From: Betaproteobacteria bacterium
Lineage (GTDB): Bacteria > Pseudomonadota > Gammaproteobacteria > Burkholderiales > Burkholderiaceae_C
Length of the DNA: 45,384 bases
Direction: 5' to 3'
Assembly (NCBI GenBank): GCA_037140415.1
Contig: JBAXEN010000001.1
Span: forward strand, 1 to 45,384
The translations under genes and the position numbers were made by a program. Below, piece after piece: positions 25,298 to 41,698 of the stretch. The notes beneath the pieces were generated by a model. The model made no database searches and was not told where the DNA came from. It worked only from the letters and a program-made list of their open reading frames with translations. Each line of letters begins with the position of its first letter. The stretch's first letter is position 1.

Positions 25298-25326
25298 TTG
25301 ACCGCCTCAATTTTTGCATGCAAAAT
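25298..25326 (+). promoter_or_regulatory. Sigma70 promoter of the catabolic cluster overlapped by a palindromic operator
   Basis: TTGACC(25298)-17 nt-CAAAAT(25321); perfect palindrome TTTTGCATGCAAAA at 25312-25325. Confidence 0.65.
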
Positions 25327-25335
25327 TGCACACAT

Positions 25336-26553
25336 ATGTCTGAATCGCCTCCTCCATCCACCGGCAAGCCGCCTGAGTCCAAGCCCAAGGCCATGATTCG
25401 CAGCGGGGATGACTCCCCCGTTCTGAGCGACGAGCAGATCGAAGACGCCAAGAAACTCATCGGCGTCTGGCTGCGCCGCGATGTCCACACCCCCGCGATC
25501 TACGAGCCGCTGTCGGTGCACGACATCCGGCGCTGGGCCCACTACAGCGTGGGCGACGACAACCCCCTGTTTAGCGACGTCGAGTACGCCAAGCGAACCT
25601 CGCTGGGCGTGGTGGTGGCGCCCCCCACCTTTCTCTACACCATCGACAGCGGCATCATTGCGCCGGGTCTGCCAGGCATCCAGTGGATTTTTGCCGGCTC
25701 GCGCTTCGAGCATTTCCTGCCGGTCAAGGCGGGCGACACCATCACCGCCCGCGCCCGGCTGATTGATGTGCAGATCAAGTCCAGCCGCAACGTGGCGCGC
25801 TATGTCAATCAGGTGGGTGAGGTCCTCTATACCAACCAATATGGCCAATTGGTCACTCGCTATGAAGGTGACATCTACCGCATTCCGCGCAAGCGCAGTG
25901 GCGGTGGATTCAAGTTTGCCGTCAATAGCGCTGCCGAAGCCCCCAAGCCCTACCGATACACCGACGATGAAATCGAGGCCATCGCAGAGGGCTACCGCAG
26001 CGAATTTCGCCGTGGCAGCCAGGTGCTGTACTGGGAAGAGGTGCAGGCCGGCGACCTGTTGCCTGTGGTGCAAAAAGGCCCGCTGACCCTGGTCGACATC
26101 GTCGGCTTTTATTCGGGCCGCAGAACCGTCTACAGCGTCATGAAGCTGGCTTTTGCCGAACGCGACCGCCACCCGCGCAATGTCTACTACTCGCCCTCGC
26201 GCAACATTCCCATGCATCCGGCGGCAGGGCATTTTGATGCCGAGATCGCCCACGAGATCGGCATGCCTGGCGCCTACGACCAGGGTTGGCAGCGCATCAA
26301 CTGGGCCGGCCATATGCTGACCAACTGGTGCGGCGACCAAGGCTTTGTGCGCAAGCTCGAAGGCAAGGTGACCCGCCCCAACCTGGTCGGCGACCTCACC
26401 CGCATGCACGCCGAAGTCACCGGCAAGCGCAAGGACGCCAATGAGGCGCTGGTTGAAATTCGCTGGTGGGGCGAAAACCAGCGTGGCGAACAAAACTGTA
26501 GTGGTAAGGCCGAGGTGCGCCTGCCCTCGCGTGACATCAGCCTGCGCTGCTAA
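25336..26553 (+). CDS. Double hot-dog MaoC/FAS1-like acyl-CoA dehydratase
   Basis: DIRRWA..VGDDNPLF, APPTF, GHFD...A...G.PGAYD.G; alternative start ATG 25393 has an AAGG SD. Confidence 0.8.
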   Translation: MSESPPPSTGKPPESKPKAMIRSGDDSPVLSDEQIEDAKKLIGVWLRRDVHTPAIYEPLSVHDIRRWAHYSVGDDNPLFSDVEYAKRTSLGVVVAPPTFLYTIDSGIIAPGLPGIQWIFAGSRFEHFLPVKAGDTITARARLIDVQIKSSRNVARYVNQVGEVLYTNQYGQLVTRYEGDIYRIPRKRSGGGFKFAVNSAAEAPKPYRYTDDEIEAIAEGYRSEFRRGSQVLYWEEVQAGDLLPVVQKGPLTLVDIVGFYSGRRTVYSVMKLAFAERDRHPRNVYYSPSRNIPMHPAAGHFDAEIAHEIGMPGAYDQGWQRINWAGHMLTNWCGDQGFVRKLEGKVTRPNLVGDLTRMHAEVTGKRKDANEALVEIRWWGENQRGEQNCSGKAEVRLPSRDISLRC

Positions 26554-26567
26554 GGAGCAATAACAAA

Positions 26568-27779
26568 ATGCGTAAACCGCTAGAGGGCATCAAGGTGCTC
26601 GACCTCACCCACGGCGTGGCCGGGCCCTACTGCACCATGGTGCTGGGCGATCTCGGCGCCGAGATCATCAAGATCGAAAAACCCGAGCGCGGTGACGCCA
26701 CGCGCTACATGAACGTCAGCGACCGCTTTCACACCGACATCCCCAAGGTGGGCGGCGATTATTTTCTGGCCATCAACCGCAACAAGCGCAGCATGGCGCT
26801 TGAGCTCAAAACCCCAGAAGGCCGCCAGATCTGCGAGGAGCTTGCCGGCTGGGCCGACATCGTGGTGCAAAACTTCCGCCCGGGTGTGACGGGCCGACTC
26901 GGGCTGGACTACGCCAGCCTCAAGCGCTTTAACCCCAGGCTGATCTACGCCAACATCTCGGCCTATGGCATGGGCGGTGCCCACGCCGACAAGGCCGGCA
27001 TGGACATCGCCGTGCAGGCACGCTCGGGCCTGATGCGCATCACCGGCTCGCCCGACTCCAAAGAGCCAATGCGCGCTGGCGCGTCCATGGCCGACTTTGG
27101 CGGCGGCATCTACCTGGTGACGGCAGTGCTTGCCGCGCTCTACGACCGCGAGCGCACCGGCGAGGGCCAAGAGGTCAGCGTCTCCCTGATGGATGCGACC
27201 ATGAGCCTGCTGATCAACTATTCGGTAGCCGTGATGGACGGGGGCGCTGAGGTCGCACCGCTGGGCTCGGGGCACCCGCAGCTGGTGCCCTACCAGTCCT
27301 TCCCCACCCGCGACGGCTTTGTGGTGGTGGCCACTGGCACCAACAAAACCTACCGCACCTTTTGCGATGCGATCGAGCGGCCCGACCTCAGCGTCGACCC
27401 GCGCTTTGCCTCCAACCAGAGTCGGGTCAAGAATCGCGCTGCCATCGTCGCTGAGCTGTCCCAGGTGTTCAGCCAGCGCAGCACCGAGCAGTGGATTGCG
27501 ATTTTGGAAAAAGCCGACATCCCCTGCGCCCCGGTCAATGAGCTGGCCGATGCCTACGAGGAGCTGCGCAGCACCTCGCCCGATATGGTGACTCAGGTGC
27601 AGCACCCGCAGCTCGGAGGCCTGACGCAGCTGGGCGTGCCGTTTCGCTTTTCCAACTGCGGCGGCGACATCCGCCGCCCGCCCCCCATGCTCGGCGAGCA
27701 CACCGAAGAGGTGCTGGCGCAACTGCTCGGGCGCAGCAGCGAGGCCATCGCCACCTTGCGCGCGCAAAAAGTCATCTGA
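26568..27779 (+). CDS. CaiB/BaiF class III CoA-transferase
   Basis: PLEGIKVLDL..AGP, NRNKRS, NFRPG, catalytic-type Asp in MADFGGG, PPMLGEHT. Confidence 0.93.
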   Translation: MRKPLEGIKVLDLTHGVAGPYCTMVLGDLGAEIIKIEKPERGDATRYMNVSDRFHTDIPKVGGDYFLAINRNKRSMALELKTPEGRQICEELAGWADIVVQNFRPGVTGRLGLDYASLKRFNPRLIYANISAYGMGGAHADKAGMDIAVQARSGLMRITGSPDSKEPMRAGASMADFGGGIYLVTAVLAALYDRERTGEGQEVSVSLMDATMSLLINYSVAVMDGGAEVAPLGSGHPQLVPYQSFPTRDGFVVVATGTNKTYRTFCDAIERPDLSVDPRFASNQSRVKNRAAIVAELSQVFSQRSTEQWIAILEKADIPCAPVNELADAYEELRSTSPDMVTQVQHPQLGGLTQLGVPFRFSNCGGDIRRPPPMLGEHTEEVLAQLLGRSSEAIATLRAQKVI

Positions 27780-29923
27780 TGAACGGTGCGCTTGCAGCCG
27801 CTGCGGGTCAGCTGGGGGAGCGCTATGGCGACCCCTTGGATTTCATTTTCCATGCCCGCTCGATCGCTCTGATCGGCCTGTCGAGCGACCCCCGCAAAAT
27901 GACCGGCGCGCCGCTGGGCATCTTGCGGCAGACCGGATTTGCCGGGCCGATTTACCCCGTCAATCCCCGCGTTGCCGAGATCGGTGGCTTGCGCTCTTAC
28001 CCCAGCATTGCGTCCTTGCCGCAAGCGCCAGATGTGGCCATGATCATGCTTGGCGCCAAACACTGCGCTCAAGCGGTGCGTGAATGCGCGGCCAAAGGCA
28101 CCCGGGCGGTGGTGGTGCTCAGCTCAGGCTTTGAAGAAACCGACGGTGGCCAGCAGGCCGCTGCCGAGCTGCTGGCTGCGGCGCGCGAGAGCGGCGTGGC
28201 GGTGGTCGGGCCCAATTGCGAGGGCGTGTGGTCGGTGGCCCCGCGCGTGGTGCTCACCTTTGGGTCCGCGGCCAAGCGTGATGTGCTGACCCATGCGCCG
28301 GTGGCGATCTTGTCGCAAAGCGGGGCCATGGCCGGGGCCATCGCGCGGCACCTGCAAAACGACGCCATAGGTTGCGCCTACATGGTCTCGGTGGGCAACG
28401 AGACCGTCCTGACCCTGGCCGACTACATGGAGTGGATGATCCGCCAGCCCGATGTGCGGGTTCTGCTGCTGTTCATTGAAGGGCTGCGCGATGGCGAGCG
28501 CCTGGTGCGCTTGATTGGCCAGGCCACCGCACGCGGCATACGGGTGGCAGCGCTCAAGTCGGGCAACTCTAAAGCCGGCGTCGAAGTGGCGGCCTCCCAC
28601 ACCGGCAAGATTGCCAGCGACTACCAGGTCTACCGCGACCTGCTTGCGGGCGCTGGTGCAATTTTGGTCGACAGCCTGACCGATTTGATTGCTGCCGGTG
28701 AGGTCTTGAGTGTGGCGCCGGATCCGGCGGCGCGGCTGCCAGAACTGAGCCAACCCAGCGAGCGCGGCGTGGCGGTGTTCAGCATCCCCGGCGGCACCCG
28801 GGCCTTGACGGTGGACCAATGCGAGGCCCACGGGGTGCCGTTGTCGACCTTTGCCCGCAGCACGGTGGCGCAGCTTAGTGCCGCCCTGCCCGAATTCGGG
28901 GGTGTTGAAAACCCCACCGACCTGACCGGCCAGGTGCTGTCGCACCAGGGGCTGTTTGACCAGACCTTGTCCATCATCGCGGCCGATCCAAACACCGAGG
29001 CGCTGATTGTTCAGGTGGCCAATCGCGGCCCCAGCGATGTGATCGAGCGCACCGAACTGCTGGGCCAGATGGCCCGCGACACTGGGGTGCCGGTGATCGC
29101 CACCTTTTTGGGCGACAGCCTGCCAGCCGCAGACCGAGCCCGGCTGCGCGCGCACAAAGTGCTGTGTGCCCGCGATCCGGCCGAGGCCGCGCTGTTTCTC
29201 GGCTGGCTGTACCGGGCTCGGGCGGCGGCAGCGCAGCCCCTGGCGCCCGCGCCCACCCCTCTGGCCGATGCCCCAGCGCCAGCCGATTGGGCCTCCACCA
29301 TGGCCTGGCTGCAGGCTTGCGGCATTGCGGTGCCGCCTTGGCGTGAGCTGGCCGCAGGCGATGATGTGGCGCAGGTGTGCGCCGGCATGGCGCGGGTGGC
29401 GGTCAAGGCGCTGCCTGAAGATGCGGCCCACAAAACCGAGGCTGGGCTGCTGGCCCTGGATGTGCAGGGTGCGAAGGCGATTGCGCAGGAGGCCGCCCGC
29501 ATACGCCAGGCGCTGGGCAAGCCCCAGGCCCGCATCCTGGTGCAGGCCATGGTGGAAGGCGGCGTTGAAGTGGTGCTGGCTGCTCGCCATAACCCCGACT
29601 TCGGCCCGGTGATGGCCATTGGCCTGGGCGGCATCGCGGTGGAACTGTTTCAGGACATCACCTGGCTGGCTTTGCCCACCAGTGAGGCCGCCGTTCGCAA
29701 AGCCCTGGCTCGCCTGAAGCTGGCCCAGGTGCTGGCGGGCTTTCGCGGCAAACCCCCCGCCGATGCGCAGGCCTTGGTTCGGGCTGCAGTAGCATTTGGC
29801 CAGCGCTTTGTCGCCACCCGACCCAGCCTGGCTGAGTTCGAAATCAACCCCCTGCTGGTGCTGGCTCGCGGTGTGGTGGCCGTCGATGCCTTGCTGGCCA
29901 ACACTGCCCAGGCGCAGCCATAG
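27779..29923 (+). CDS. ADP-forming acyl-CoA synthetase (fused AcdA/B, ATP-grasp)
   Basis: IYPVNP, GPNCEG, SQSG, phospho-His motif ASHTG, NPTDL, HKTE, EINPL. Confidence 0.9.
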   Translation: MNGALAAAAGQLGERYGDPLDFIFHARSIALIGLSSDPRKMTGAPLGILRQTGFAGPIYPVNPRVAEIGGLRSYPSIASLPQAPDVAMIMLGAKHCAQAVRECAAKGTRAVVVLSSGFEETDGGQQAAAELLAAARESGVAVVGPNCEGVWSVAPRVVLTFGSAAKRDVLTHAPVAILSQSGAMAGAIARHLQNDAIGCAYMVSVGNETVLTLADYMEWMIRQPDVRVLLLFIEGLRDGERLVRLIGQATARGIRVAALKSGNSKAGVEVAASHTGKIASDYQVYRDLLAGAGAILVDSLTDLIAAGEVLSVAPDPAARLPELSQPSERGVAVFSIPGGTRALTVDQCEAHGVPLSTFARSTVAQLSAALPEFGGVENPTDLTGQVLSHQGLFDQTLSIIAADPNTEALIVQVANRGPSDVIERTELLGQMARDTGVPVIATFLGDSLPAADRARLRAHKVLCARDPAEAALFLGWLYRARAAAAQPLAPAPTPLADAPAPADWASTMAWLQACGIAVPPWRELAAGDDVAQVCAGMARVAVKALPEDAAHKTEAGLLALDVQGAKAIAQEAARIRQALGKPQARILVQAMVEGGVEVVLAARHNPDFGPVMAIGLGGIAVELFQDITWLALPTSEAAVRKALARLKLAQVLAGFRGKPPADAQALVRAAVAFGQRFVATRPSLAEFEINPLLVLARGVVAVDALLANTAQAQP

Positions 29924-29935: not shown

Positions 29936-30742
29936 ATGAGCGATCTGAACCCGACAAGCAGTCCTGAAGCCAGACCCTTGGCGGGGCGCACCGCCGTGGT
30001 CACCGGTTCGGGCCGCAACATTGGGCGTGCCATCGCGATGGCCCTGGCCAGGGACGGGGCCAATGTGGTCATCAACGGTCATGGCAAGCCCGAGGCATTG
30101 GAGGCGGTGGCTGCGCAAGCCCGGGCTTTTGGGGTCCAGGCCATGGTGGCCGTGGCCGACGTGGGCGATCCCAGTGCTGTTGCGGCCATGGTCGATGCAA
30201 CGGTTCAGCGCTTTGGCAGCTTGGACATCGCGGTCTCCAACGTCTCGGTGCGCCTGCACCAGCCCTTTCTCGACATCAGCATCGATGACTGGCAGCGTGT
30301 CATCAACACCAACCTGAGTTCAGCGTTTTACCTGGCGCGCGCCTGCCTGCCGCACATGGTCAGCCGGCAATGGGGCCGGATCATCCACATCTCGGGACGC
30401 GATGGCTTTTCGCCCAAACCCAACCGGGCCCACAATGTGACCGCTAAGGCCGGTGTGTTTGCCCTGGCCAAGGCGATTGCCACCGAGTTCGGTCCCATGG
30501 GCATTACCGCCAATGCGGTGGCGCCGGGCATCGTGGATACCGAGCGTGACCTGAACCACTATCCGGACGTCACCAACGCGGCCCTGCAAAACAGCTTTGC
30601 GGTGCGCAAGGCGGCCATGCCGCTGCGACGCTTCGGCCATGTCGATGAGATCGGGGCGGCCTGTAGCTATTTGTGTTCGGAGGCGGGTGGCTTCATGACC
30701 GGCCAGATCCTGCACCTCAATGGCGGCGAGTTCATGTTCTGA
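29936..30742 (+). CDS. SDR family oxidoreductase, atypical active site
   Basis: TGSGRNIG, NAVAPG, TGQILHLNGG; NVTAK in place of YxxxK. Confidence 0.88.
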   Translation: MSDLNPTSSPEARPLAGRTAVVTGSGRNIGRAIAMALARDGANVVINGHGKPEALEAVAAQARAFGVQAMVAVADVGDPSAVAAMVDATVQRFGSLDIAVSNVSVRLHQPFLDISIDDWQRVINTNLSSAFYLARACLPHMVSRQWGRIIHISGRDGFSPKPNRAHNVTAKAGVFALAKAIATEFGPMGITANAVAPGIVDTERDLNHYPDVTNAALQNSFAVRKAAMPLRRFGHVDEIGAACSYLCSEAGGFMTGQILHLNGGEFMF

Positions 30743-30802: not shown

Positions 30803-32194
30803 ATGAACACACGTCCTGCTGGAGTGACCGATGCGATGGCCGACTTTGCGGTCGGCCACAGGCCCTATCCGGCACTGGCCCGCCAGCGTGCGCTGGACGC
30901 GATGATCGATTGCCTGGCTTGCATGTACGCGGGCAGTCGCGAGCCCTTGGCGGCGCCCCTGCTCAAGGTGCTGCCGACCGCGGACGGCGAGTCGCAGCGC
31001 TATCCCGCGCTGTTCATCGGTACCGGGCGCTATGGCTCGGCTGCTGATGCGGCGCTCTACAACGGCGCCGTTGCCCATGCGCTGGACTATGACGACACCA
31101 ACCATCCGGCCTATGCCCACCCCAGCGCGGTGCTGTTGCCGGCCTTGCTGGCGGCGGCCCGGATGGCCGGTGCCAGCGGCAGCGAACTGATAGACGGCTA
31201 TATCGCCGGCTTTGAAATTTTCGGCAAGCTCGGCCGCGCGATGAACACCCAGCACTACAAGCGCGGCTGGCATGCGACCTCGAGTTTTGGCACGCTGGCC
31301 GCAACCGTTGCGATCGCTCGTATCTTGAAGCTCAGTCATCGCCAGACGGTGATGGCGCTCGGGATTGCGGCCTCCTCGGCCTCGGGTCTGCGGGCCAATT
31401 TCGGCAGCATGGTCAAACCCTTGCACGCCGGCTATGCAGCCCGCAATGCGGTGCTGGCTGCGCTGCTCGCGCGCGAGGATTTTGATGCGGCGCCACAGGC
31501 GCTGGAGCACCCCTATGGCTATCTGTCGGTGTTCAACGCCGGCATCGGCTTTGACACGGCTCCCCTGATGGCGCTGGGTGAGGACTTGGAGATCCTCACC
31601 GAGCACGGCCTGGCGCTCAAGCCCTATCCAGCCTGCGGGGCCACGCACCCTGGCATCGAAGCGGCGCTGAGCCTGCATCCGCAGTTGGCAGGCGAGGGCA
31701 TTGCTCAGGTTCAGGCGGGTGTCTGTGAGATGGCCTTCTCGCCCCTGATCTACGTCATGCCCCATACCCCGCTGGAGGGCAAATTCAGCCTGCATTACTG
31801 CATTGCGGCAGCCCTGGTGTTTGGTGAGGTGAACCTGTCGACCTTCACAGACGCCAAGGTGGCCGATCCGCGTGTGCGCAGCCTGATTCCAAAAATCTCG
31901 ATGAAAACCGATGAGCGCTGGCGAGATGACAGCGAGTTTGCAACCGAAGTCATCGTCACCACCGAAACCGGCAGACGCTTAGCCCGGCACATTGCGCTGG
32001 CCGCGGGCAAGCCCGATCGCTGGTTCAGCCCAGAGCAGTTACGCGCGAAATTCGATGACTGCACCCACGCCTTCGGCAGTGCCTTCCAGCACCGGGTATT
32101 CACCGCTTTGCGTGGGCTCGACAGCGCTGATGATGTGTTGCCCTTGATCGAGCAGTTGCGACTTCAGGAGCCGGCGTCGCAGCGGGCCGCGTGA
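30803..32194 (+). CDS. MmgE/PrpD family protein
   Basis: HALDYDD..HP, RGWHAT, KPLHAG, KPYPAC..TH, KFS. Confidence 0.92.
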   Translation: MNTRPAGVTDAMADFAVGHRPYPALARQRALDAMIDCLACMYAGSREPLAAPLLKVLPTADGESQRYPALFIGTGRYGSAADAALYNGAVAHALDYDDTNHPAYAHPSAVLLPALLAAARMAGASGSELIDGYIAGFEIFGKLGRAMNTQHYKRGWHATSSFGTLAATVAIARILKLSHRQTVMALGIAASSASGLRANFGSMVKPLHAGYAARNAVLAALLAREDFDAAPQALEHPYGYLSVFNAGIGFDTAPLMALGEDLEILTEHGLALKPYPACGATHPGIEAALSLHPQLAGEGIAQVQAGVCEMAFSPLIYVMPHTPLEGKFSLHYCIAAALVFGEVNLSTFTDAKVADPRVRSLIPKISMKTDERWRDDSEFATEVIVTTETGRRLARHIALAAGKPDRWFSPEQLRAKFDDCTHAFGSAFQHRVFTALRGLDSADDVLPLIEQLRLQEPASQRAA

Positions 32195-32244: not shown

Positions 32245-33213
32245 ATGAAAGCAGCCTCCCCACTGGTCAGCCTCGCAGCCGCTGCGATGCTTGCCCTAGC
32301 CCCTCTGGCCCAAGCGCAGGACTATCCTAGCAAGCCTGTGCGTCTGGTCGATCCTTATGCGCCCGGCGGCTCCACCAGCGTGGTCTCGCAAGCCCTGTCC
32401 AAAAAATTCCAGGAATACACCGGTCAGCCTATGGTGGTGGACCACAAACCCGGCGCGGGCAGCAACATCGGCGCTGAAATCGTCGCCAAGTCAGCGCCCG
32501 ACGGCTACACCGTCTTGGTTGCGGCCAGCAGCTTGGCCATCAACCCGAGCCTGTACCGCAATATGGCCTTTGACCCCATCAAGGATCTGGCGCCGATTGC
32601 CATGCTGATTCGCACGCCCAATGTGCTGGCGGTTCATCCGGCCTTGCCGGTGCGCAGCACCGCCGAGCTGATCGCTTATGCCAAGGCCAATCCCGGCAAG
32701 CTCAACTACGGCTCTTCCGGCAACGGCGCGACCAACCACATGGCGGCAGAACTCCTCAAGGTACTGGCCAAGGTGGAGATGCAGCATGTTCCTTATAAAG
32801 GCGGCGGTGAGGCCATGGCGGCGCTGCTCAGCGGCCAGGTTCAGGTGCTGTTCAACCCGGCATCGACCTTGGCCCCTCAGGACAAGGCCGGGCGCCTGCG
32901 CATGATTGCGGTGGGCAGTGCCGAGCGCGTGCCGGGGCTCAATCTGCCCACGCTGGCCGAGTCTGGCCTGCCCGGCTTTCAGTCGGATGTGTGGTTTGCC
33001 CTGCTCGCGCCTGCAGGTACGCCCGCACCGGTGATCGCCAAGCTCAATGCGCTGACCAATCGCATCCTGAAGGATCCGGCGGTGACGGCCACTTTGAACA
33101 AGGCCGGCCTGGAGCCCGTCGGCGGCAGTGCCGAGGACATGGCCAAATTGCTCAAAGCAGATACCGCGCGCTGGGCCGAGGTGGTCAAGAGCGCCGGCAT
33201 CAAGATCGAATAA
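32245..33213 (+). CDS. Bug/TctC substrate-binding protein
   Basis: Signal peptide, PYAPGGST, KPGAGSNIG, HVPYKG. Confidence 0.93.
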   Translation: MKAASPLVSLAAAAMLALAPLAQAQDYPSKPVRLVDPYAPGGSTSVVSQALSKKFQEYTGQPMVVDHKPGAGSNIGAEIVAKSAPDGYTVLVAASSLAINPSLYRNMAFDPIKDLAPIAMLIRTPNVLAVHPALPVRSTAELIAYAKANPGKLNYGSSGNGATNHMAAELLKVLAKVEMQHVPYKGGGEAMAALLSGQVQVLFNPASTLAPQDKAGRLRMIAVGSAERVPGLNLPTLAESGLPGFQSDVWFALLAPAGTPAPVIAKLNALTNRILKDPAVTATLNKAGLEPVGGSAEDMAKLLKADTARWAEVVKSAGIKIE

Positions 33214-33249: not shown

Positions 33250-33996
33250 ATGACCACCGATTCCATGCCTCCCCCTGAGGAGGTGCTCGATGTGCTGGTA
33301 CAGAGCACTTACCAGGCGATCAAGGATGCAATCCTGGGTAACCGCTTGCGGCCTGGACACAAGTTGATTCATCAGGCGCTGGCCGAAAACCTGGGCGTCT
33401 CGCGAACGCCGGTGCGCGAGTCGCTGGAGCGTCTGTACCAGGAAGGCTATGTGACGCGCATTGCCAACCGCGGCTACTTTGTCGCGGAGATCGATGTGCA
33501 GGAGGTCCGCGACCTCTACCAGACGCGCGAGGCGCTGGAGGTTTTTTCCCTGCAACTCATCTTCAAAGCGGGCCTGCAAAGCCAGGCGCTGTCCCAACTC
33601 GAAGCCATCAACGCGCGGTATAAAAAGCTGTGCATGGAAAGCCTGAGCCGAGAGCGTTTGCTGGTGGACCGGGAGTTTCATCTGGCGCTGGCATGGCTGT
33701 CGGGCAACCGGTACCTGCACAAGACGCTCAGCAGCATCTTTGATCGACTGATCCTCAAACGCCGGGTCGAGGGATTTCACGATCTGCGGGGCATTGAGCC
33801 CTACAAAGACCATGTCAGTTTGCTGGCGGCCATCGAGTCTGGCGACGAGGCAGCCGCACTCGACTTGCTCAGCGCGCACATCACCGGCGCCAGTGCCCGC
33901 TTCATCCAATACCTCGAGCCCGCTGTGGCCTCGACATCAGGCATCGCTGGGCCTGCTCGCAAGGCCAAGTCTGCGCTCAAGAAAGCAGGGTCCTGA
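33250..33996 (+). CDS. GntR/FadR (FCD) transcriptional regulator
   Basis: wHTH LAENLGVSRTPVRESL; FCD motifs DREFH, GNRYL. Confidence 0.93.
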   Translation: MTTDSMPPPEEVLDVLVQSTYQAIKDAILGNRLRPGHKLIHQALAENLGVSRTPVRESLERLYQEGYVTRIANRGYFVAEIDVQEVRDLYQTREALEVFSLQLIFKAGLQSQALSQLEAINARYKKLCMESLSRERLLVDREFHLALAWLSGNRYLHKTLSSIFDRLILKRRVEGFHDLRGIEPYKDHVSLLAAIESGDEAAALDLLSAHITGASARFIQYLEPAVASTSGIAGPARKAKSALKKAGS

Positions 33997-33997
33997 G

Positions 33998-35377
33998 ATG
34001 CCGGTCACCCGTGTGCTTGTGGCCAATCGGGGCGAAATTGCGCTGCGCGTGATCAGGGCTTGCCAGCAGATGGGCCTAGAAACCGTGCTGGCCGTGTCTG
34101 CAGCCGATCGCGACAGCCTGCCTGCTCGGCTGGCCGATCAGGTGCTGTGCATAGGTCCTGCGCCCGCAGCGCAAAGTTACCTGCAGATCCCCGCGCTGAT
34201 CATGGCTGCCATGGGCTCTGGTGCTGACGCCTTGCATCCCGGCTATGGATTTCTGTCGGAGTCGCCGGAGTTGGCCACAGCCTGCGCAGAGGCTGGGCTG
34301 GTTTTTGTGGGTCCTAGAGCGGACAACATCCGCGACATGGGCAACAAGCTGCGAGCGCGCGAGAAGGCGCAGGCCTTTGGACTGCCCTTGTTGCCCGGCT
34401 CCGAGCAGGTGTGCAGCTGGCAGGAGGCGCTGGCCGTCGCGGAGCAGATCGGCTTTCCGGTTTTGCTCAAGGCGGCGGCCGGTGGTGGCGGCAAGGGCAT
34501 GAAAGTGGTCCGCGAGGGTGCTCAGATGCAGGCCCTGTTTGAAGCGGCGACCGGCGAGGCCGCGGCCTCCTTTGGCGACAACACGCTGTATTTGGAGCGC
34601 TATATCGACAGGGCCCGCCACATCGAGGTACAGGTGCTCGGTGACGATTATGGCCAGGTGATTCATTTGGGCGAGCGCGATTGCTCCTTGCAGCGCAGGC
34701 ATCAGAAACTGGTGGAGGAATCGCCAGCGCCGGCGCTCTCGGACGCCTTGCGGGGCGAGATCTGTCAAGCGGCCGTGACCTTGGCAAAAAACATAGGCTA
34801 TGTCAGTGCGGGCACGGTGGAGTTCATCTACGACGAAGCGCTCGGGCATTTTTACTTCCTGGAAATGAACACCCGGATACAGGTGGAACACCCGGTCACT
34901 GAGATGGTCACCGGCATTGATCTGGTGCAGGAGCAATTGCGGGTGGCGCGCGGCGAGAAGCTGCGCTTTGCCCAGAGCGATCTTGTGTTTCGGGGCCATG
35001 CGATCGAGTGCCGCATCAACGCCGAGCTTCCCCTGGAGGGCTTCAGGCCCAGCCCTGGGCGCATCAGCCAATGGTCGCCGCCGCAGGGGCCCAATATCCG
35101 GCTGGACAGCCATTGCCACGAAGGCTATTTAGTGCCCCCTTATTACGACTCGCTGATGGCCAAGCTGATTGTGTATGGCGTTAATCGGCAAGAGGCGATT
35201 GAGCGCATGGTCCGGGCCTTGAAGCAATTTCAGGTGCAAGGTCCAGGCACGACCATCGACTTTTTGGGGCATGTGGTGGCCCATCCAGAGTTTGCGCAGG
35301 GCCGGGTCACCACCGGCTTGGTCGAGCAGTTGATCGAGGAATTTGCCCTAGAGCAGGAGCGCTTGCATGCGCCCTGA
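33998..35377 (+). CDS. Biotin carboxylase subunit
   Basis: VLVANRGEIA, HPGYGFLSE, GGGGKGM, ERDCSLQRRHQK, EMNTRIQVEHPVTE. Confidence 0.95.
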   Translation: MPVTRVLVANRGEIALRVIRACQQMGLETVLAVSAADRDSLPARLADQVLCIGPAPAAQSYLQIPALIMAAMGSGADALHPGYGFLSESPELATACAEAGLVFVGPRADNIRDMGNKLRAREKAQAFGLPLLPGSEQVCSWQEALAVAEQIGFPVLLKAAAGGGGKGMKVVREGAQMQALFEAATGEAAASFGDNTLYLERYIDRARHIEVQVLGDDYGQVIHLGERDCSLQRRHQKLVEESPAPALSDALRGEICQAAVTLAKNIGYVSAGTVEFIYDEALGHFYFLEMNTRIQVEHPVTEMVTGIDLVQEQLRVARGEKLRFAQSDLVFRGHAIECRINAELPLEGFRPSPGRISQWSPPQGPNIRLDSHCHEGYLVPPYYDSLMAKLIVYGVNRQEAIERMVRALKQFQVQGPGTTIDFLGHVVAHPEFAQGRVTTGLVEQLIEEFALEQERLHAP

Positions 35378-35592: not shown

Positions 35593-36576
35593 ATGAATAT
35601 GTTCAAACGGATTCTTGGTTCCTTGGCCTTGGCCGCAACTGGCGCGCTGAGCCTGACTGCACTCGCGCAGGACTACCCGGCAGCGCCGATACGGGTGGTG
35701 ATCCCTTATGCGCCGGGCGGCGGCAGTGACATCCTGGCACGTCCAGTGGGGGTTTATATCGAAGGCGCGCTCAAGCAGCCGGTGGTGATCGATAACAAGG
35801 GCGGCGCGGGCGGCAATATCGGCTCGGAGTTTGTGGCACGGTCGGCGCCCAATGGCTATACCTTGCTGCTGGCCAACAACTCCCAGGTGATCAATCAGTT
35901 CGTCTATAAAAGACCGGGCTATGACATGGAAAAGGACTTCGCGCCGATCTCGCTACTGGGCACCTCGCCCACCGTGGTGGTGGTCAACAAGTCCCTGCCG
36001 GTCAATTCCATCCGGGAGTTGATCGAGTACGCGCAGAAGAATGAAGGCAAGCTCAACTTCAGCAGCGCAGGGGTAGGCACTCCGGGGCACCTGGCTGGTC
36101 TGCTGTTTAACAAGCAGGCCGGTCTGAACATTGTTCATGTGGCCTACAAGGGAACCGGACCTGCGATCCTGGCTTTGCTGCAAAACGAGGTGCAGGTCCA
36201 TTTTGCGACGCCAGCGGCGGCCGATCCGCATGTGAAGTCGGGCGAATTCAAGGCCCTGGCGGTGACGTCGCAGGGCCGTTTTGCCCAACTGCCCAACCTG
36301 CCTACCGTGGCCGAGTCGGGTGTGCCTTCATTGCGTGATTACCACATCGATGTCTGGTGGGGCCTGCTCGCCCCGGCGGGCACGTCGGCGTCCATCCTTG
36401 AAAAACTCAATGCCTCGGTGGCTGCTGCCCTGCGCGATCCCAAGTTGCGCGACAGTTGGCTCTCGCGCGGCATGGTGCCCACCAGCAATTCGGTGGTGGC
36501 CTTTCAAAGCTTGATCAGAAGCGACCTGCAGAAATGGGAAAAGCTGGTGCGCGACAACGATATCAAGGTCGATTGA
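35593..36576 (+). CDS. Bug/TctC substrate-binding protein
   Basis: GAGGAGG SD, signal peptide, PYAPGGGSD, HVAYKG. Confidence 0.93.
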   Translation: MNMFKRILGSLALAATGALSLTALAQDYPAAPIRVVIPYAPGGGSDILARPVGVYIEGALKQPVVIDNKGGAGGNIGSEFVARSAPNGYTLLLANNSQVINQFVYKRPGYDMEKDFAPISLLGTSPTVVVVNKSLPVNSIRELIEYAQKNEGKLNFSSAGVGTPGHLAGLLFNKQAGLNIVHVAYKGTGPAILALLQNEVQVHFATPAAADPHVKSGEFKALAVTSQGRFAQLPNLPTVAESGVPSLRDYHIDVWWGLLAPAGTSASILEKLNASVAAALRDPKLRDSWLSRGMVPTSNSVVAFQSLIRSDLQKWEKLVRDNDIKVD

Positions 36577-36618: not shown

Positions 36619-38100
36619 ATGGGACGTCTGATCACCATCAGGGACACCACGCTGCGCGACGGCCATCAGTCGCTGTGGGCCACGCGCATGTCCACCGAGA
36701 TGATGCTACCGGTGGCCCGCCACATCGAGCGCTCTGGCATCAACTCGGTCGACATCATGGCGCACGTGATCATCGACTCGGCGGTGCGATTTACCAAGGA
36801 CAACCCCTGGGATCGGGCCAATGCGCTGCGCAAACTCATGCCCACGCCCGACATGGCCGGCTACACGGCAGGCAAGGTGGCCTGGGGTTTCAGGTTGGCT
36901 CCCACCGACATCCTGGAGCTGTGTACCGAACTGACGATACGCAACGGCGTCAACATGGTCACCGCCATGAACGGCTTGCTCGATCTGGACATGATGGTCG
37001 ACCAACTCAAGCAGGCCAAAGCCCTGGGTGCCAAGACGGCGGCAGCGCTGGTCTACTCGATCAGCCCGGTGCACACCGACGCGCTTTATGAGGAAAAAGC
37101 CCGCGCCCTGGTCGAACGCGCCGATGTCGACTACATCATGATCAAGGACTCCGGCGGGCTGATCACGCCCGACGCAGCCGGCTCCTTGTTTGACGCGGTC
37201 CGCCGTGGCGCGGGCCGCAAAAAGATCACATTGCACAGCCACGCCATGACGGGCATGGCTGGTCGGGTCTACATGATCGGCGTCGATCACGGCGTGGACG
37301 ACCTGCAATGCGGAGTTTGGCCGCTGGCGCAAGGCGCGGCCCAGCCCTCGACCCAGATGGTGGTCAAGAATTTGCGGGCCAAGGGCTATCAGGTCGATAT
37401 CGATGACGAGCAGATCGAGGCTATCAGTCAGCACCTGATTGCCGTGGCCAAGCGCCATGGTTTTCCTTTGGGCGGGCCGGTCGAATACGACGACACGCAC
37501 TACGAGCATCAGATTCCGGGCGGCATGCTCAGCAATTTGCGATCGCAGCTGGCCGATGCGAATTTGCTGGAGCGCTTTCCCGAATTGGTGGGTGAAATTA
37601 AGCGGGTCAGGGCCGAATTGGGCTGGCCCACCATGGTCACCCCGTTCGCGCAATTGGTGGCCAACCAGGCGCTCTTCAATGTGGTCACGGGTGAGCGCTA
37701 CGGCACGGTGCCCGACGAAATCACCCACTATGTGCTCGGTCACTATGGCCAGTTGCTGGCGCCGGTCGATGCGAATGTGCTCGATAAGATCCTGTCCAAG
37801 AGCTCGGCCGATGCCCGGCTAGCTCCCTGGGACATGCCGCCAGCGCTGCCGGAGCTGCGCAAGCGCTACCCCCATGCCAGCGATGAAGAGCGCTTTCTGC
37901 GCTACATGATTCCCGAGGCAGCGGTGGAGGACATGCTCAAACGCCAGGGCGATGCCAAAGCGCAGGACAGCGCGCGCAGGCGTGATTTCGGCCCCATCAG
38001 CAGCGCCTTGGTGCAGCTGATGGCCAAGGCGGCGAGCATGAGCGATGTCGGTGAGGTCGACATCCGCAGCGGCGATCTGCGCCTGCGTGTGGTGCGCTAA
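36619..38100 (+). CDS. Stand-alone carboxyltransferase, pyruvate carboxylase B / oxaloacetate decarboxylase alpha / 5S type
   Basis: DTTLRDGHQSL, IKDSGG, HSH, HQIPGGMLSNL, PTMVTP; no biotinyl domain. Confidence 0.9.
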   Translation: MGRLITIRDTTLRDGHQSLWATRMSTEMMLPVARHIERSGINSVDIMAHVIIDSAVRFTKDNPWDRANALRKLMPTPDMAGYTAGKVAWGFRLAPTDILELCTELTIRNGVNMVTAMNGLLDLDMMVDQLKQAKALGAKTAAALVYSISPVHTDALYEEKARALVERADVDYIMIKDSGGLITPDAAGSLFDAVRRGAGRKKITLHSHAMTGMAGRVYMIGVDHGVDDLQCGVWPLAQGAAQPSTQMVVKNLRAKGYQVDIDDEQIEAISQHLIAVAKRHGFPLGGPVEYDDTHYEHQIPGGMLSNLRSQLADANLLERFPELVGEIKRVRAELGWPTMVTPFAQLVANQALFNVVTGERYGTVPDEITHYVLGHYGQLLAPVDANVLDKILSKSSADARLAPWDMPPALPELRKRYPHASDEERFLRYMIPEAAVEDMLKRQGDAKAQDSARRRDFGPISSALVQLMAKAASMSDVGEVDIRSGDLRLRVVR

Positions 38101-38103: not shown

Positions 38104-39516
38104 ATGGACAAGGTCTGGCCCACCCCGCAGGAGGCGGTTCGTGACATCAGCGAGGGCGCCAGCATTGCGATTGCCGGCTTCAGCGTTGACCATGGTTTTG
38201 CTGTCAGCCTGATCCAGGCCCTGAAGGATCAGGGCACAAAAAGGCTGTGCATCGTCTGCAACTCGCTGGGCGCCCCTGGGCAGTTGCGGCCTCAGATTCT
38301 GGTGGAGAACCAGCAGGTCAGCCGCTTGATTGCCTCGTTCTCGGCCCGCCCCGGCGTGCCCACCGACGCTGAGCGCCAGATCGCCAGCGGCGAGATCTCG
38401 CTGGAGTTGGTCCCCCAAGGCACCTTGGTCGAGCGCCTGCGCGCCGGTGGCGCCGGCATCGCCGCCTTCTACACCCAGGCCGGGCTGGATACGGCCATCG
38501 CACGTGGCAAGGAGGTGCGCGAATTCAAGGGCCAACGCTATCTGATGGAAGAGGCGCTGACGGTGGACTACGCCTTTCTCAGTGCCTGCCGGGCCGACCG
38601 CGCCGGCAACCTGGAATTTCGCGGCGGTAGTCAAAGCTTTAACCCGAGTTTTGCCAAGGCAGCGCGGGTGGCCATTGCCGAGGTCGATGAAATCGTTGAA
38701 GTCGGGCAGATCCCGCCCGAGCGCATAGGCTTGCCGGGCATTTTTGTCTCCCGGGTGGTGCAGCGTGTGCTGCAGCCCGATCCGCCAGGCGCACGCAAGA
38801 AGCGGCGTGGTGATGACACCTTCAAGACCTATCACGGCAAGCCGGGGCTGTCGCGCATGGACATTGCCCGCCGCGCCGCTTTGCTGCTCGATGACCACAG
38901 CTATGTCAATTTAGGCGTAGGCATTCCCACCCTGATCGCTAACCACATCGGCAGCAAGGACCTGATGCTGCATGCCGAAAATGGCATCCTCGGCTACGGC
39001 CCCTTGCCGGCCGATCAGCCCATTGACCGCGACCATTACAACGCCAGCGGTGAGTTCGTCGGGCTGATTCCAGGGGCCTCTTTCTTTGACAGCGTGACCT
39101 CCTTTGAAGTCGCCCGCTCCGGCCGGCTTGCCGCGGTGGTGCTCGGTGCCTACCAGGTGGACGCTCAGGGCAATCTGGCCAATTGGTCGACGCCGAACAT
39201 GGTCGGTGGCGGCATTGGCGGTGCGATGGACCTGATCGCCAGCCCCAGCCGTCTCATCATCTTGATGGAGCACACCGACAGCAAGGACAGGCCCAAGCTC
39301 GTTGCGCAATGCACCTTCCCACTGACCGCCGAGCGCCGTGTGGACACGGTGGTGACCGATCTGGCGCTGCTGCGGCGGGTCGATGGCGTGTTCTGGCTCG
39401 AGGAGATCGCACGCGGCTTTGAGCTTGAGGAGGTGCTTGCGTTGACGCCGATGGGCGTGCGTGTGGCGCCTCAGGTCGGCGTCATGCAGGACGCATTTGA
39501 GACGAACCAGGCCTGA
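38104..39516 (+). CDS. Fused 3-oxoacid CoA-transferase (A+B subunits)
   Basis: PQGTLVERLRAGGAGI, YVNLGVGIP, catalytic-type Glu in AENG, GGAMDL. Confidence 0.92.
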   Translation: MDKVWPTPQEAVRDISEGASIAIAGFSVDHGFAVSLIQALKDQGTKRLCIVCNSLGAPGQLRPQILVENQQVSRLIASFSARPGVPTDAERQIASGEISLELVPQGTLVERLRAGGAGIAAFYTQAGLDTAIARGKEVREFKGQRYLMEEALTVDYAFLSACRADRAGNLEFRGGSQSFNPSFAKAARVAIAEVDEIVEVGQIPPERIGLPGIFVSRVVQRVLQPDPPGARKKRRGDDTFKTYHGKPGLSRMDIARRAALLLDDHSYVNLGVGIPTLIANHIGSKDLMLHAENGILGYGPLPADQPIDRDHYNASGEFVGLIPGASFFDSVTSFEVARSGRLAAVVLGAYQVDAQGNLANWSTPNMVGGGIGGAMDLIASPSRLIILMEHTDSKDRPKLVAQCTFPLTAERRVDTVVTDLALLRRVDGVFWLEEIARGFELEEVLALTPMGVRVAPQVGVMQDAFETNQA

Positions 39517-39551
39517 GTCCTCGGATTGAATCTATGGAAAGAGCCCAAACC

Positions 39552-40079
39552 ATGCCAATGTCCCACGAAGAAATTCTCGATATCCTCGATGCGATTGACA
39601 AGATGAATTGCGCCTCGGTGGAGGTGACGCTGGGTGATGTGAGCATTGCGGTACACCGGGGCCAGGCCCCTGCGGCGCGCAGCGCCGAGGCGCCACAGGC
39701 CCAACACATGCCATCGGTTCATGCGCAAGCGCGCGCCAACCCGCAGCCCTCGCAAGCCGCTCCTGCTGCGTCGCGGGCGCAAGCTCAACCGAACGCTGAT
39801 CTGGCGCCCTGGCTGGAGCGGGAGGCTCAAGGGCAGGTTCGCATCGTGCGCGCCCCGATGATCGGCACTTTCTACCGGGCCAAAGCCCCGGGCGAGCCGG
39901 CTTTCGTTGAGGTGGGCCAGACGGTGAGCCCAGGCGATACCCTGGGCTTGATGGAGGTGATGAAGTTGTTCAATTCGCTGCTCGCCAATGCGGCCGGAAC
40001 GGTCGATGCCATCCTGGCGGGCAACGGCGATCTGCTGGAATTCGATCAGCCGGTTTTTGTGATCAGGACCGCTGTATGA
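39552..40079 (+). CDS. Biotin carboxyl carrier protein
   Basis: Ala/Pro linker, APMIGTFY, biotinylation motif EVMKL. Confidence 0.93.
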   Translation: MPMSHEEILDILDAIDKMNCASVEVTLGDVSIAVHRGQAPAARSAEAPQAQHMPSVHAQARANPQPSQAAPAASRAQAQPNADLAPWLEREAQGQVRIVRAPMIGTFYRAKAPGEPAFVEVGQTVSPGDTLGLMEVMKLFNSLLANAAGTVDAILAGNGDLLEFDQPVFVIRTAV

Positions 40080-40128
40080 ACCGACAGACGCGCAACACGG
40101 GCTGCCGCGGCCCAGGGAGCAGCACCCC

Positions 40129-41292
40129 ATGAGCCGGTCGATGGCCTATATCGTCGGTGCTTACGAGCACCCCACCCGCAAAGCGCCCGACAAATCGGTC
40201 GCCCAGCTGCATGCCGAGTGCGCCCGCGGCGCTCTGGCCGACGCCGGCCTGAGTCTGCGCGATGTCGATGGCTATTTCTGCGCCGGCGACGCGCCGGGCC
40301 TGGGCGCGCTCAATATGGCCGATTACCTGGGCCTGAACTGCCGGCACATTGATTCGACCGACACCGGCGGATCTTCTTATCTGGTTCATGTGGCCCATGC
40401 GGCGCAGGCGATTGCCGCCGGCAAGTGCCATGTTGCGCTGATCACCCTGGCCGGAAGGCCTCGCTCCGAGGCCACCAACGGCACCCGCCAGCGCGACGCC
40501 AGGCCCAATGTGCCCGATGAGCCCTTCGAGCTGCCTTATGGCGTGGTGACGGTGAACAACTACGCCTTGGTTGCAGCCCGACATATGCACGATTGGGGAA
40601 CCACGCCTGAGCAGCTGGCCTGGATCAAGGTGGCCGCTTCGCGGCATGCGCAGCACAACCCCCATGCGATGCTGCGCGATCCGGTCAGCCTCGATGATGT
40701 GCTCGCATCGCCCTTGATTTCTGATCCGCTGCGGCGCATGGACTGCTGTGTGGTGAGCGACGGCGGCGGTGCCCTGGTGGTCACCCGCCCTGAAATCGCC
40801 CGCACGCTCAAGCAGCCGCTGGTGGCGGTGCGCGGCACTGGCGAGGCCATCAAAGGCCTGGATGGCGGGCGCATCGATCTGTCTTATTCGGCGGCCGCCT
40901 GGTCGGGCCGGGCGGCTTTTGAGCAAGCCGGTGTGACGCCGGCAGACATTCAATACGCATCGATCTACGACAGCTTCACCATCACCGTGTTGGTGCAGCT
41001 CGAAGACCTGGGCTTTTGCGCCAAGGGCGAGGGCGGGCGCTTTGTCGCTGACGGCAATCTGATTTCAGGTGTCGGCAGGCTGCCGGTCAATACCGACGGT
41101 GGCGGGCTGTGCAACAACCATCCGGCCAACCGTGGCGGCATCACCAAGGTCATTGAGGCGGTCCGACAATTGCGAGGGCAGGCCCATCCGGCGGTACAGG
41201 TCAAGGACTGCACCCTGGCCCTGGCGCAGGGCATGGGGGGCTATCTGGGCACCCGCCACGGCAGCGCCACCTTGGTACTGGAAAGGCTGTAA
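40129..41292 (+). CDS. SCP2/Ltp2-type thiolase-like protein
   Basis: DCCVVSDGGGA, IYDSFT, LEDLGFC.KGEGG, VNTDGGGL, EAVRQLRG. Confidence 0.9.
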   Translation: MSRSMAYIVGAYEHPTRKAPDKSVAQLHAECARGALADAGLSLRDVDGYFCAGDAPGLGALNMADYLGLNCRHIDSTDTGGSSYLVHVAHAAQAIAAGKCHVALITLAGRPRSEATNGTRQRDARPNVPDEPFELPYGVVTVNNYALVAARHMHDWGTTPEQLAWIKVAASRHAQHNPHAMLRDPVSLDDVLASPLISDPLRRMDCCVVSDGGGALVVTRPEIARTLKQPLVAVRGTGEAIKGLDGGRIDLSYSAAAWSGRAAFEQAGVTPADIQYASIYDSFTITVLVQLEDLGFCAKGEGGRFVADGNLISGVGRLPVNTDGGGLCNNHPANRGGITKVIEAVRQLRGQAHPAVQVKDCTLALAQGMGGYLGTRHGSATLVLERL

Positions 41293-41296
41293 ACCC

Positions 41297-41698
41297 ATGA
41301 GCACTCCTTGGCAAGCAAGAATTGCGACAGAGCCGGCGGTCTATCCGGAGACCGAGGCCTTCTGGCAGGCGGCCAATGAAGGTCGGCTGCTGCTCAAACG
41401 CTGCGTGGACTGCGGGCAATTTCATTGGTATCCCCGCGCCATCTGTCCGTTTTGCGCCAGCGACCGCACCGAGTGGGTACAGGCCAGCGGCAAGGCCGTG
41501 GTGTATTCAGTCACCGTCAGCCGCAAGTCGGGCCCTGTGCCTTACGCCCTGGCCTATGTGACCCTGGAAGAAGGGGTGACGATGCTCAGCAACATCGTCG
41601 AGTGCGATTTGGATGCGGTGCGCATCGGCGATGCGGTCGAGCTGACCTTCGTGAGCACCGCGGCCGGCCACGCGATCCCCGTCTTTCGCCCCGCCTGA
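41297..41698 (+). CDS. DUF35 Zn-ribbon/OB-fold protein
   Basis: FWQA, CxxC...PR..CPxC, PYALAYV.LEEG, PVFRP. Confidence 0.92.
   Translation: MSTPWQARIATEPAVYPETEAFWQAANEGRLLLKRCVDCGQFHWYPRAICPFCASDRTEWVQASGKAVVYSVTVSRKSGPVPYALAYVTLEEGVTMLSNIVECDLDAVRIGDAVELTFVSTAAGHAIPVFRPA

Follow-up and report, generated by a model that had tools for sequence, protein, structure and literature searches.

A putative ketone carboxylase linked to a substituted-succinate module in a betaproteobacterial gene cluster

Introduction

What might a bacterium do with a free-standing biotin carboxylase system set among enzymes of CoA chemistry? The question is raised by a 14-gene cluster in the window, a 45,384-nucleotide stretch of DNA that is contig C1 of G000, the genome of a freshwater betaproteobacterium (4.3 Mb, 91.5% complete). 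The cluster encodes a biotin carboxylase (BC), a biotin carboxyl carrier protein (BCCP) and a pyruvate carboxylase (PC)-type carboxyltransferase (CT), along with a fused 3-oxoacid CoA-transferase (SCOT), a thiolase-fold protein with a DUF35 neighbor, and a set of enzymes related to those acting on substituted succinates. To our knowledge, characterisation of biotin enzymes that carboxylate plain ketones began in 2022 and extends only to those acting on phosphorylated lignin aromatics. The systems concerned are the Hpe pathway of Rhodococcus rhodochrous GD02 (PMC9618137) and AcvABCDEF of Sphingobium SYK-6 (bioRxiv 2022.04.28.489975); XccABC of Aromatoleum aromaticum EbN1 is cited in both papers. 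In the parts of these papers available to us, HpeCBA and AcvCDE carboxylate only phosphorylated aryl ketones, and a kinase and a phosphatase are needed.

We propose, with somewhat less than even confidence, that the cluster comprises two modules under one operator and would convert a branched dicarboxylic acid to a non-phosphorylated keto acid, carboxylate the latter, form its CoA ester, and release acetyl-CoA independently of a catalytic cysteine. An initial annotation of the sequence had already suggested organic-acid import, carboxylation of a CoA-free ketone by BC, BCCP and a PC-type CT, and activation by SCOT, and the present analysis supports all three. The overall design is known; the new elements are a CT clade that has no kinase, a cleavage pair that lacks the Cys, and the joining of both to a succinate module. 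In agreement with the initial annotation, no description of the combination was found in the literature searched, which was covered in part and without supplements (one supplementary item, Fig. S5 of PMC9618137, deals with hpe-like clusters and could affect this finding).

Gene content of the cluster

The plus strand from 25336 to 41698 carries 14 intact open reading frames in the order initially annotated, and 15,837 of the 16,363 bases are coding. Pfam and NCBIfam backed the family assignment of every gene: FAS1_DH plus MaoC, CoA_transf_3, CoA_binding_2/Succ_CoA_lig/ATP-grasp_5, adh_short and MmgE_PrpD (genes 1-5); TctC, GntR plus FCD, BC with three domains, a second TctC, and HMGL-like plus PYC_OADA (genes 6-10); and CoA_trans with A and B fused, Biotin_lipoyl, Thiolase_C_1, and zf-ChsH2 plus OB_ChsH2_C (genes 11-14). 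Gene maps of relatives divide the genes into module A (the hot-dog, CaiB, ligase, short-chain dehydrogenase/reductase (SDR), PrpD, Bug1 and GntR genes) and module B (the BC, Bug2, CT, SCOT, BCCP, thiolase-like and DUF35 genes). GC content (0.60-0.68) and GC at third codon positions (0.71-0.85) agree with the genome (0.64) and the flanks. DNA runs of two other studies contain near-identical contig pieces along the cluster, no listed piece covering the whole. No RNA run was listed with the cluster, and one RNA run of the possible source sample gave only short, unlike pieces; neither result has a bearing on expression. Runs with only a small share were disregarded as to habitat.

Carboxylase system and CoA-transferase

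The best solved matches to CT are PycB (5KS8), the oxaloacetate decarboxylase alpha subunit OadA (2NX9) and transcarboxylase 5S (1RQB), with which it shares the TIM-barrel CT fold and the RD..Q, carbamylated-Lys, HxH and Thr features; its metal, biotin and enolate residues are kept. Unlike them, it has no fused biotinyl domain and falls under every NCBIfam family cut-off (best score 354 bits against 402). It also differs at the LLRG motif, whose Arg binds the alpha-carboxylate of pyruvate and is replaced by Ala84. This Arg was found in none of 40 rows of the window clade and none of nine kinase/HAD-linked rows, as against 126 of 142 other rows. In an IQ-TREE phylogeny of 54 rows picked to span contexts, the window clade (support 100/100) and the kinase/HAD-linked group (98/97) lay on separate branches. 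CT is 32-39% identical to the kinase/HAD-linked CTs, which are context-defined proxies (L147, L154, L162, L170, L171) standing for HpeB, AcvE and the Xcc CT.

A two-subunit phenol kinase of the HpeHI/AcvAB type was found neither in the cluster nor in close orthologous loci. The kinase query matched one stretch in the 91.5% complete G000 genome, on contig C260 at 33-40%, which is probably a phosphoenolpyruvate synthase. Likewise, the cluster contains no HAD phosphatase, and one HAD query gave no tblastn match at 1e-8 in G000. The loss of the pyruvate-site Arg, together with the lack of an adjoining kinase or phosphatase, argues that CT likely carboxylates a non-phosphorylated ketone.

The resemblance to the Hpe, Acv and Xcc systems thus lies in the free-standing BC, BCCP and PC-type CT, in the lack of the pyruvate-site Arg (as seen in the context-defined relatives), and in the sequence ketone, beta-keto acid, CoA ester, loss of acetyl-CoA. 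The differences are that the cluster has no kinase (HpeHI/AcvAB) or HAD phosphatase (HpeD/AcvF), that its CT belongs to another clade, that SCOT takes the place of an AMP-forming ligase or BKACE, that a Cys-less thiolase-fold/DUF35 pair takes the place of HpeF or VceAB, and that a substituted-succinate module and Bug transporters are joined to it. Judged by sequence, then, the carboxylase would work like HpeCBA and is not a member of the Hpe pathway; the initial choice of Hpe and Acv as models is not supported in that form, given their phosphorylated substrates, the missing kinase and phosphatase, and the CT clade.

BCCP keeps its biotinylation motif, and a BPL/LplA/LipB-family gene elsewhere in G000 is a candidate, and only that, for the biotin ligase. 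The SCOT loop SFSARPG is nearer to that of the genome's own PcaI (SFPRQ) than to that of its ScoA (SSYVGEN); this PcaI-like loop and the dedicated Bug protein suggest a keto acid substrate and a dicarboxylic beta-keto product. A SCOT-thiolase pair also occurs in L201.

The last 30 residues of CT (38011-38100) resemble the N-terminal helix-hairpin of BCCP (39558-39660) weakly (best local profile match, probability 4%, E 0.01). All 10 CTs that were displayed have this tail, which could have a role in assembly; a complex prediction with two copies each of CT 400-493 and BCCP 1-42 scored 0.01 and weighs neither way. Within single genomes, paralogues from the wider PC-type CT family are numerous (G495 has six, and one 17-kb locus has four), and most keep the pyruvate-site Arg. 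Partners include BKACE, AcnX, an FAD oxidase, a thiamine diphosphate enzyme, an AccD-type CT and an amidohydrolase (G495, L101, L061, L064, L050). In L170 (3058-9348; plasmid pBAR1 of Sphingomonas bisphenolicum), an Acv-like BCCP-BC-CT-HAD set stands with BKACE, thioesterase and UPF0261-like genes, and the part of the locus displayed has no kinase; several other distant CTs are likewise flanked by UPF0261.

Thiolase-fold protein and DUF35

The thiolase-like protein scores 729 bits against PRK08142 (cut-off 462), and among structures it comes nearest to 4U4E (E 2.5e-90), which is uncharacterised. In alignments to solved structures, Gly81 takes the position of the nucleophilic Cys, the HDxF loop reads YDSF with Tyr280 in place of the His, and His331 lies in the GHP loop; Ser282 is at the Sal Cys304 site and His331 at the Ltp2 Tyr344 site. 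The DUF35 gene begins 4 bases after the thiolase-like gene and is stand-alone, not fused to a hydratase. Of 12 CT loci with a thiolase-fold gene, 11 encode Cys-less YD[SA]F/HP proteins (two being identical copies), and L002 encodes a divergent Cys-less one. According to the accessible part of PMC12329534, Gly at the nucleophile site excludes thiolysis and the Tyr serves as the base in retro-aldolases; similarly, a His-to-Tyr change in the HDxF loop nearly abolished thiolysis in PfACAT (PMC12960953, as far as its available text goes). Given Gly81 and YDSF, classical thiolysis by the thiolase-like/DUF35 pair, as initially annotated, is excluded on residue grounds.

Among systems acting on substituted succinates, the anaerobic benzylsuccinate route presumably ends its CaiB/hydratase/SDR series with the thiolase-fold/DUF35 enzyme BbsAB, a benzoylsuccinyl-CoA thiolase (PDB 7PXP). 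With BbsAB, SCP2-type and archaeal thiolases, the pair shares the GHP-loop His (His331) and the DUF35 partner gene. Unlike the benzylsuccinate route, the cluster has no acyl-CoA dehydrogenase and has an added biotin carboxylase; moreover, BbsAB uses HDxF (PMC12960953, available text), a motif the protein here does not have. Of the archaeal thiolase/DUF35 structures (6ESQ, 7YVY), 7YVY keeps the Cys and HDAF, neither of which is present here. With the steroid side-chain aldolases TcLtp2-ChsH2 (PDB 6OK1) and CtSal-Shy (PDB 9MYR; PMC12329534, accessible part), the likeness extends to the thiolase fold, the nucleophile-site Gly, the Tyr of YDx[FY], the DUF35 partner gene, and a hot-dog hydratase in the same cluster. 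The motifs nevertheless differ, YDSF with His331 here corresponding to YDHF/Tyr344 or YDCY there.

L203 (1995-7636) and L204 (4690-10696) contain Cys-less paralogues (73-74%) beside genes for a LeuA-like synthase and an AMP-forming ligase; the synthase genes were first read as CT-like.

Enzymes of module A

IDS epimerase (PDB 2HP0/2HP3) is the nearest match of the MmgE/PrpD protein, which shares its full His/Tyr/Lys set, and all seven residues listed in Table 1 are kept in five of five close orthologues. As far as the available text of PMC12290011 shows, the substrates of all characterised MmgE/PrpD members have a 1,4-dicarboxylate backbone, and an acyl-CoA dehydrogenase always adjoins a methylsuccinate isomerase. 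Neither a methylsuccinyl-CoA dehydrogenase nor a citramalyl-CoA lyase was found among the 14 genes or in close loci. Because no acyl-CoA dehydrogenase adjoins it, the MmgE/PrpD protein is likely an epimerase of another C2-substituted succinate. The initially noted likeness to itaconate and methylsuccinate catabolism is partial: like the Pseudomonas and Cupriavidus clusters (PMC12290011, same text), this one has a full-set MmgE/PrpD protein, a CoA-transferase, a hot-dog hydratase-like protein and a nearby Bug gene; unlike them, it has no methylsuccinyl-CoA dehydrogenase or citramalyl-CoA lyase, and its hot-dog protein is about 400 residues long and 16% identical to PaIch.

The hot-dog protein has a double hot-dog fold, with 12-17% identity to solved ones. 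Its N-domain has GDDNPLF without the catalytic His, and its C-domain has an invariant HPAAGH (H294, H299) and D315. Foldseek matched it to PaIch with an E value of 1e-11, other MaoC proteins being closer. The model (pLDDT 73) is uncertain in the loops of the putative active site, and no specific function emerged from the fold search. CaiB is closest to the succinate:glutarate and HMG CoA-transferases and keeps D176, which we take to be the family motif residue; the ligase's H274 and H551 presumably represent the motifs of ADP-forming acyl-CoA ligases. The SDR family was assigned correctly at the outset, but the catalytic Ser and Tyr are absent, here and in four of four orthologues, making the protein unlikely to form a ketone from an alcohol. 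From its motifs, it may be a C=C or C=N reductase and not an alcohol dehydrogenase. Related loci add TcuA-like, PrpF-like and PrpB-like genes, which point to branched polycarboxylic acids.

Conservation and modular structure

Among the best 120 of 1,049 matches, the CT search returned at least 13 full-length clusters at 70-87%. The genome scan confirmed 482 CT relatives (79 loci kept) and the metagenome scan 495 (79 loci kept, two of them at 74-76%). CT occurs at 72-85% identity in five Comamonadaceae metagenome-assembled genomes (MAGs), bearing out the expectation that the genes would co-occur elsewhere, and at 56-59% in two actinomycete MAGs. All 14 gene types are present in G042 and G044. 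In G041 a single run contains 11 types, and Bug2, thiolase-like and DUF35 are missing; in G043 the types lie at three places, with a close SDR and Bug2 not found in the regions fetched; and in G822 the cluster is fragmented. In G042, G043 and G044 the modules lie apart, on different operons or contigs.

A hot-dog search of 50 of the 79 CT genome loci (49 genomes) matched eight genomes: each of the five with a close CT, at 80-90%, and a further three, at 69-71%. The background was 0 of 400 genomes of the family and 1 of 400 of the order. CT had no match in any of 24 genomes of the same genus, which indicates a patchy distribution of the cluster. The hot-dog protein had no match in 401 genomes of another class, a set without a positive control. 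Plasmids gave only distant relatives of CT (≤44%) and the hot-dog protein (≤37%), and Atlas only generic FAS1_DH clusters for a hot-dog homologue.

After module A, G043 and G044 have a fused double-CaiB protein (L176:2696-5002, L177:2495-4873, L185:1-2932), with a Bug gene also in G044; orthologues of both at 61-62% lie on contig C98 of G000 and could belong to the pathway as well.

Operator and promoter

The palindrome TTTTGCATGCAAAA overlaps the predicted -10 box upstream of the first gene and has one copy in 4.3 Mb; with up to two mismatches there are six further sites in G000, mostly intragenic. Its 12-base core has 12 exact sites in five related genomes, against none for the reversed control, and nine of the 12 precede hot-dog, BC, CT or SDR genes; these genomes are kin, and no statistic is claimed for the counts. 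G042 and G044 have the operator before separate operons of both modules. Since the same rare palindrome is kept where the modules split, both modules likely form one regulon, which the cluster's own GntR/FCD protein likely represses via TTTTGCATGCAAAA. In G822 and two metagenome loci, the variant palindrome TTTTGGATCCA(T/A)AA stands in place of TTTTGCATGCAAAA, before both modules in G822 (upstream of L008 position 342 and L178 position 2248) and before Bug2 in the metagenome loci (L085, L086), which suggests a regulator swap.

The ATG of the longest first reading frame (25318) falls within the operator, and the hot-dog gene likely starts at 25336 or 25393. The ATG at 25336 lies about 10 bases past the -10 box, as in L007, suggesting a near-leaderless transcript. 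A scan for sigma-70-like sites taken alone was at chance level (four found, 3.2 expected), as was a terminator scan. The initial annotation had put all 14 genes behind one promoter/operator. Its start at 25298 coincides with the -35 hexamer and the operator is conserved, but a single promoter for the whole set is unproven because 215 bases separate BC from bug2 and relatives divide the cluster into two operons.

The operator sites elsewhere were followed for a clue to the substrate and led to no named compound. In G042 (L196:8491-14484) a second MmgE/PrpD gene and an NMT1-type ABC transporter are under the same operator, and in G041 (L009:2333-9410) such a pair stands beside it; G000 has no close copy of this second MmgE/PrpD protein (best 34%). 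In L199 (3382-9225) the operator lies between TcuA-like dehydrogenase, ETF-like and PrpF-like genes and PrpB-like lyase and LeuC-like genes; by gene content this is another uncharacterised polycarboxylate pathway.

Proposed route and alternatives

In the route that we propose, Bug1 would bind a C2-substituted succinate-type acid, which the MmgE/PrpD protein would epimerise by a two-base mechanism using His106 and Tyr152. CaiB and the ADP-forming ligase would form the CoA ester, and the double hot-dog protein, perhaps with the Tyr-less SDR, would rework it. BC would use ATP to load CO2 onto K136 of BCCP, and CT would carboxylate a CoA-free ketone without an alpha-carboxylate; this ketone is probably a levulinate-type aliphatic keto acid, which Bug2 could also import. 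SCOT would then convert the product, probably a dicarboxylic beta-keto acid, to its 3-oxoacyl-CoA, and the Cys-less thiolase-fold/DUF35 pair would cleave this ester to acetyl-CoA and an acid without an acyl-enzyme. In the cleavage, Tyr280 would be the base that attacks via the hydrated ketone, and His331 would serve as an acid or form the oxyanion hole. GntR would repress both modules at the palindrome. As to its boldest elements, a biotin carboxylase for an unactivated aliphatic keto acid together with cysteine-free retro-Claisen cleavage by PRK08142/PRK06158 proteins seems to us doubtful; the keto acid would there be of the levulinate type, not an aromatic or phosphorylated compound, a CoA ester or a 2-oxoacid.

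Several points weigh against this route. Its weakest link is the presumed formation of the ketone by module A, of which the enzyme families are established. The candidate compounds, namely levulinate (to 3-oxoadipate or acetylsuccinate), 5-oxohexanoate, terebate/teraconate, paraconates and terpenoid ketones, are not decidable from sequence. In the accessible part of PMC12329534, retro-aldol cleavage is the sole established activity of Cys-less, Tyr-bearing thiolase-fold/DUF35 enzymes, and a keto-cleaving enzyme of this kind was not found in the literature searched. One close thiolase-like paralogue adjoins an aldehyde dehydrogenase (L210), and L012 carries DmpF/DmpG. BKACE (nine loci) and the thiolase-like protein (12 loci) never occur together among 161 CT loci; this exclusivity was not accepted as evidence in its own right, since chance alone predicts only about 0.7 overlaps and many loci are short or kin. 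Close hot-dog clusters are several times as numerous as close CT clusters (about 70 at ≥76% against at least 13 full-length at ≥70%). Module A occurs without this CT in G495, G845 and G848, and so is not always in need of module B; conversely, two actinomycete MAGs have module B without module A or the hot-dog protein, which speaks against a fixed link. The CT operon of G043 has no operator in the 205 bases examined upstream, and three of the 12 operator sites lie at genes outside the cluster. Lastly, the five genomes in support are freshwater MAGs related to one another, and hence not independent.

The same regulon could work in another order, with the thiolase-fold/DUF35 pair as an Ltp2/Sal-type retro-aldolase upstream of the carboxylase, an alternative that we consider rather unlikely. 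The hot-dog protein would hydrate an alkylidene-succinyl-CoA or similar compound to a tertiary 3-hydroxyacyl-CoA, which the pair would cleave to a ketone and succinyl- or acetyl-CoA; the ketone would be carboxylated and SCOT-activated, and a host thiolase would finish. This order explains the origin of the ketone, and it fits the aldolase signature (Gly at the Cys site with the YDxF Tyr), the ChsH/Ltp2 and Shy/Sal design of hot-dog hydratase, aldolase and DUF35, the presence of a PcaF-like host thiolase in G000, and a PrpB-like lyase after the hot-dog trio in G495. It fits less well with the company that the pair keeps, which is a carboxylase and SCOT or another CoA-activating enzyme and not the hot-dog hydratase: loci without hot-dog range over Beta- and Alphaproteobacteria, Bacillota and Actinomycetota (L012, L031, L034, L050, L051, L071, L094), G045 and G823 have no close hot-dog match, and the pair is missing from the otherwise joined G041 cluster. 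The second catalytic residue (Ltp2 Tyr344, Sal Cys304) is not conserved, and DUF35 is unfused to the hydratase. As to what occupies the slot elsewhere, a true Cys thiolase with DUF35 does so in the Rhodococcus plasmid cluster L171, and AcnX-bearing CT loci end in BKACE (three) or in SCOT, thiolase-like and DUF35 genes (three); paralogues of the thiolase-like protein stand beside PRK07791-type SDRs in three beta-oxidation-like clusters. On balance, action of the thiolase-like protein after SCOT is modestly favored over an aldolase upstream of CT.

Alternatively, the modules could be co-regulated and parallel, each degrading a different related acid, e.g., a substituted succinate and a co-occurring keto acid; in a variant, module B would rescue the ketone left by spontaneous CO2 loss from a beta-keto acid, and non-enzymatic decarboxylation of such acids is reported in the available part of bioRxiv 2022.04.28.489975. 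Each module has its own Bug protein, and the separate operons or contigs and separate occurrences described above are as expected on this view. We nevertheless judge it improbable, since the interleaved gene orders of G000, G041 and G822 and the shared operator fit a single pathway more simply.

A divergent carboxylase of 2-oxoacids (pyruvate or 2-oxoglutarate type), or mainly a decarboxylase or transcarboxylase, anaplerotic for a CoA pathway, would suit the best solved matches, the status of CT as the sole close PC-type copy in G000, and a Lys (Lys86) near the lost Arg, but is the least probable of the explanations given the loss of that Arg throughout the clade, the sub-cut-off NCBIfam scores, the SCOT gene adjoining or near CT in all loci with CT at ≥72% that extend far enough, and the dedicated BC always nearby, which argues for ATP-driven carboxylation.

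The proposed route from branched acid to acetyl-CoA, if true, would add a third thiolase-fold chemistry, in widespread PRK08142/PRK06158 proteins currently annotated as thiolases, and an oxygen-independent, CO2-fixing route for branched succinate-type acids in freshwater bacteria. The cluster alone settles no long-standing question. It marks a separate and likely kinase-free CT clade within a large uncharacterised CT family, and ketone carboxylases matter for carbon-fixing biocatalysis and for keto-acid breakdown in water. It also offers a clean test of function for the common cysteine-less 'thiolases' with DUF35, and the unique operator, two Bug proteins and FCD domain make the substrate findable.

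Feature coordinates and genomic surroundings

Table 1. Positions of the predicted elements and genes of the cluster within the window
Feature	Coordinates	Strand	Remarks
Sigma-70-like promoter TTGACC-17-CAAAAT	25298..25326	+	Consensus match only, chance level; overlaps conserved operator
Palindromic operator TTTTGCATGCAAAA	25312..25325	.	Single copy in G000; conserved in relatives; putative GntR/FCD site
Double hot-dog hydratase-like protein, 405 aa	25336..26553	+	Alternative start 25393
CaiB/family III CoA-transferase	26568..27779	+	Best matches succinate:glutarate/HMG CoA-transferases
ADP-forming acyl-CoA ligase, fused	27779..29923	+	Domain families; H274 and H551
Atypical SDR	29936..30742	+	Gly154 at Ser site, Asn167 at Tyr site
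MmgE/PrpD protein	30803..32194	+	H92, D95, H106, Y152, H157, K205, K273
Bug/TctC solute-binding protein 1 (Bug1)	32245..33213	+	Travels with module A
GntR/FCD regulator	33250..33996	+	Domain families, locus maps
Biotin carboxylase (BC)	33998..35377	+	68-75% to orthologues adjoining CT
Bug/TctC solute-binding protein 2 (Bug2)	35593..36576	+	Travels with module B
PC/5S-type carboxyltransferase (CT)	36619..38100	+	R13, D14, Q17, K176, H206, H208, T341; Ala84 at pyruvate-carboxylate Arg site
Fused 3-oxoacid CoA-transferase (SCOT)	38104..39516	+	E292 kept; SFSARPG loop
Biotin carboxyl carrier protein (BCCP)	39558..40079	+	EVMKL, K136; alternative start 39534
Thiolase-fold protein (PRK08142)	40129..41292	+	G81, Y280-D-S-F, H331; without nucleophilic Cys
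Stand-alone DUF35 protein, 133 aa	41297..41698	+	Zn ribbon C36/C39/C50/C53 and OB fold

Before the cluster, in the same orientation (20674-25205), are gamma-glutamyltranspeptidase, EamA, SDR and Bug genes, which were left outside it because orthologous loci did not show them and no copy of the operator accompanies them. In tblastn searches of G000, each Bug query gave about 160 matches, CaiB 39, the thiolase-like protein 13 and MmgE/PrpD eight; by these counts, it is a genome rich in uncharacterised organic-acid catabolism.

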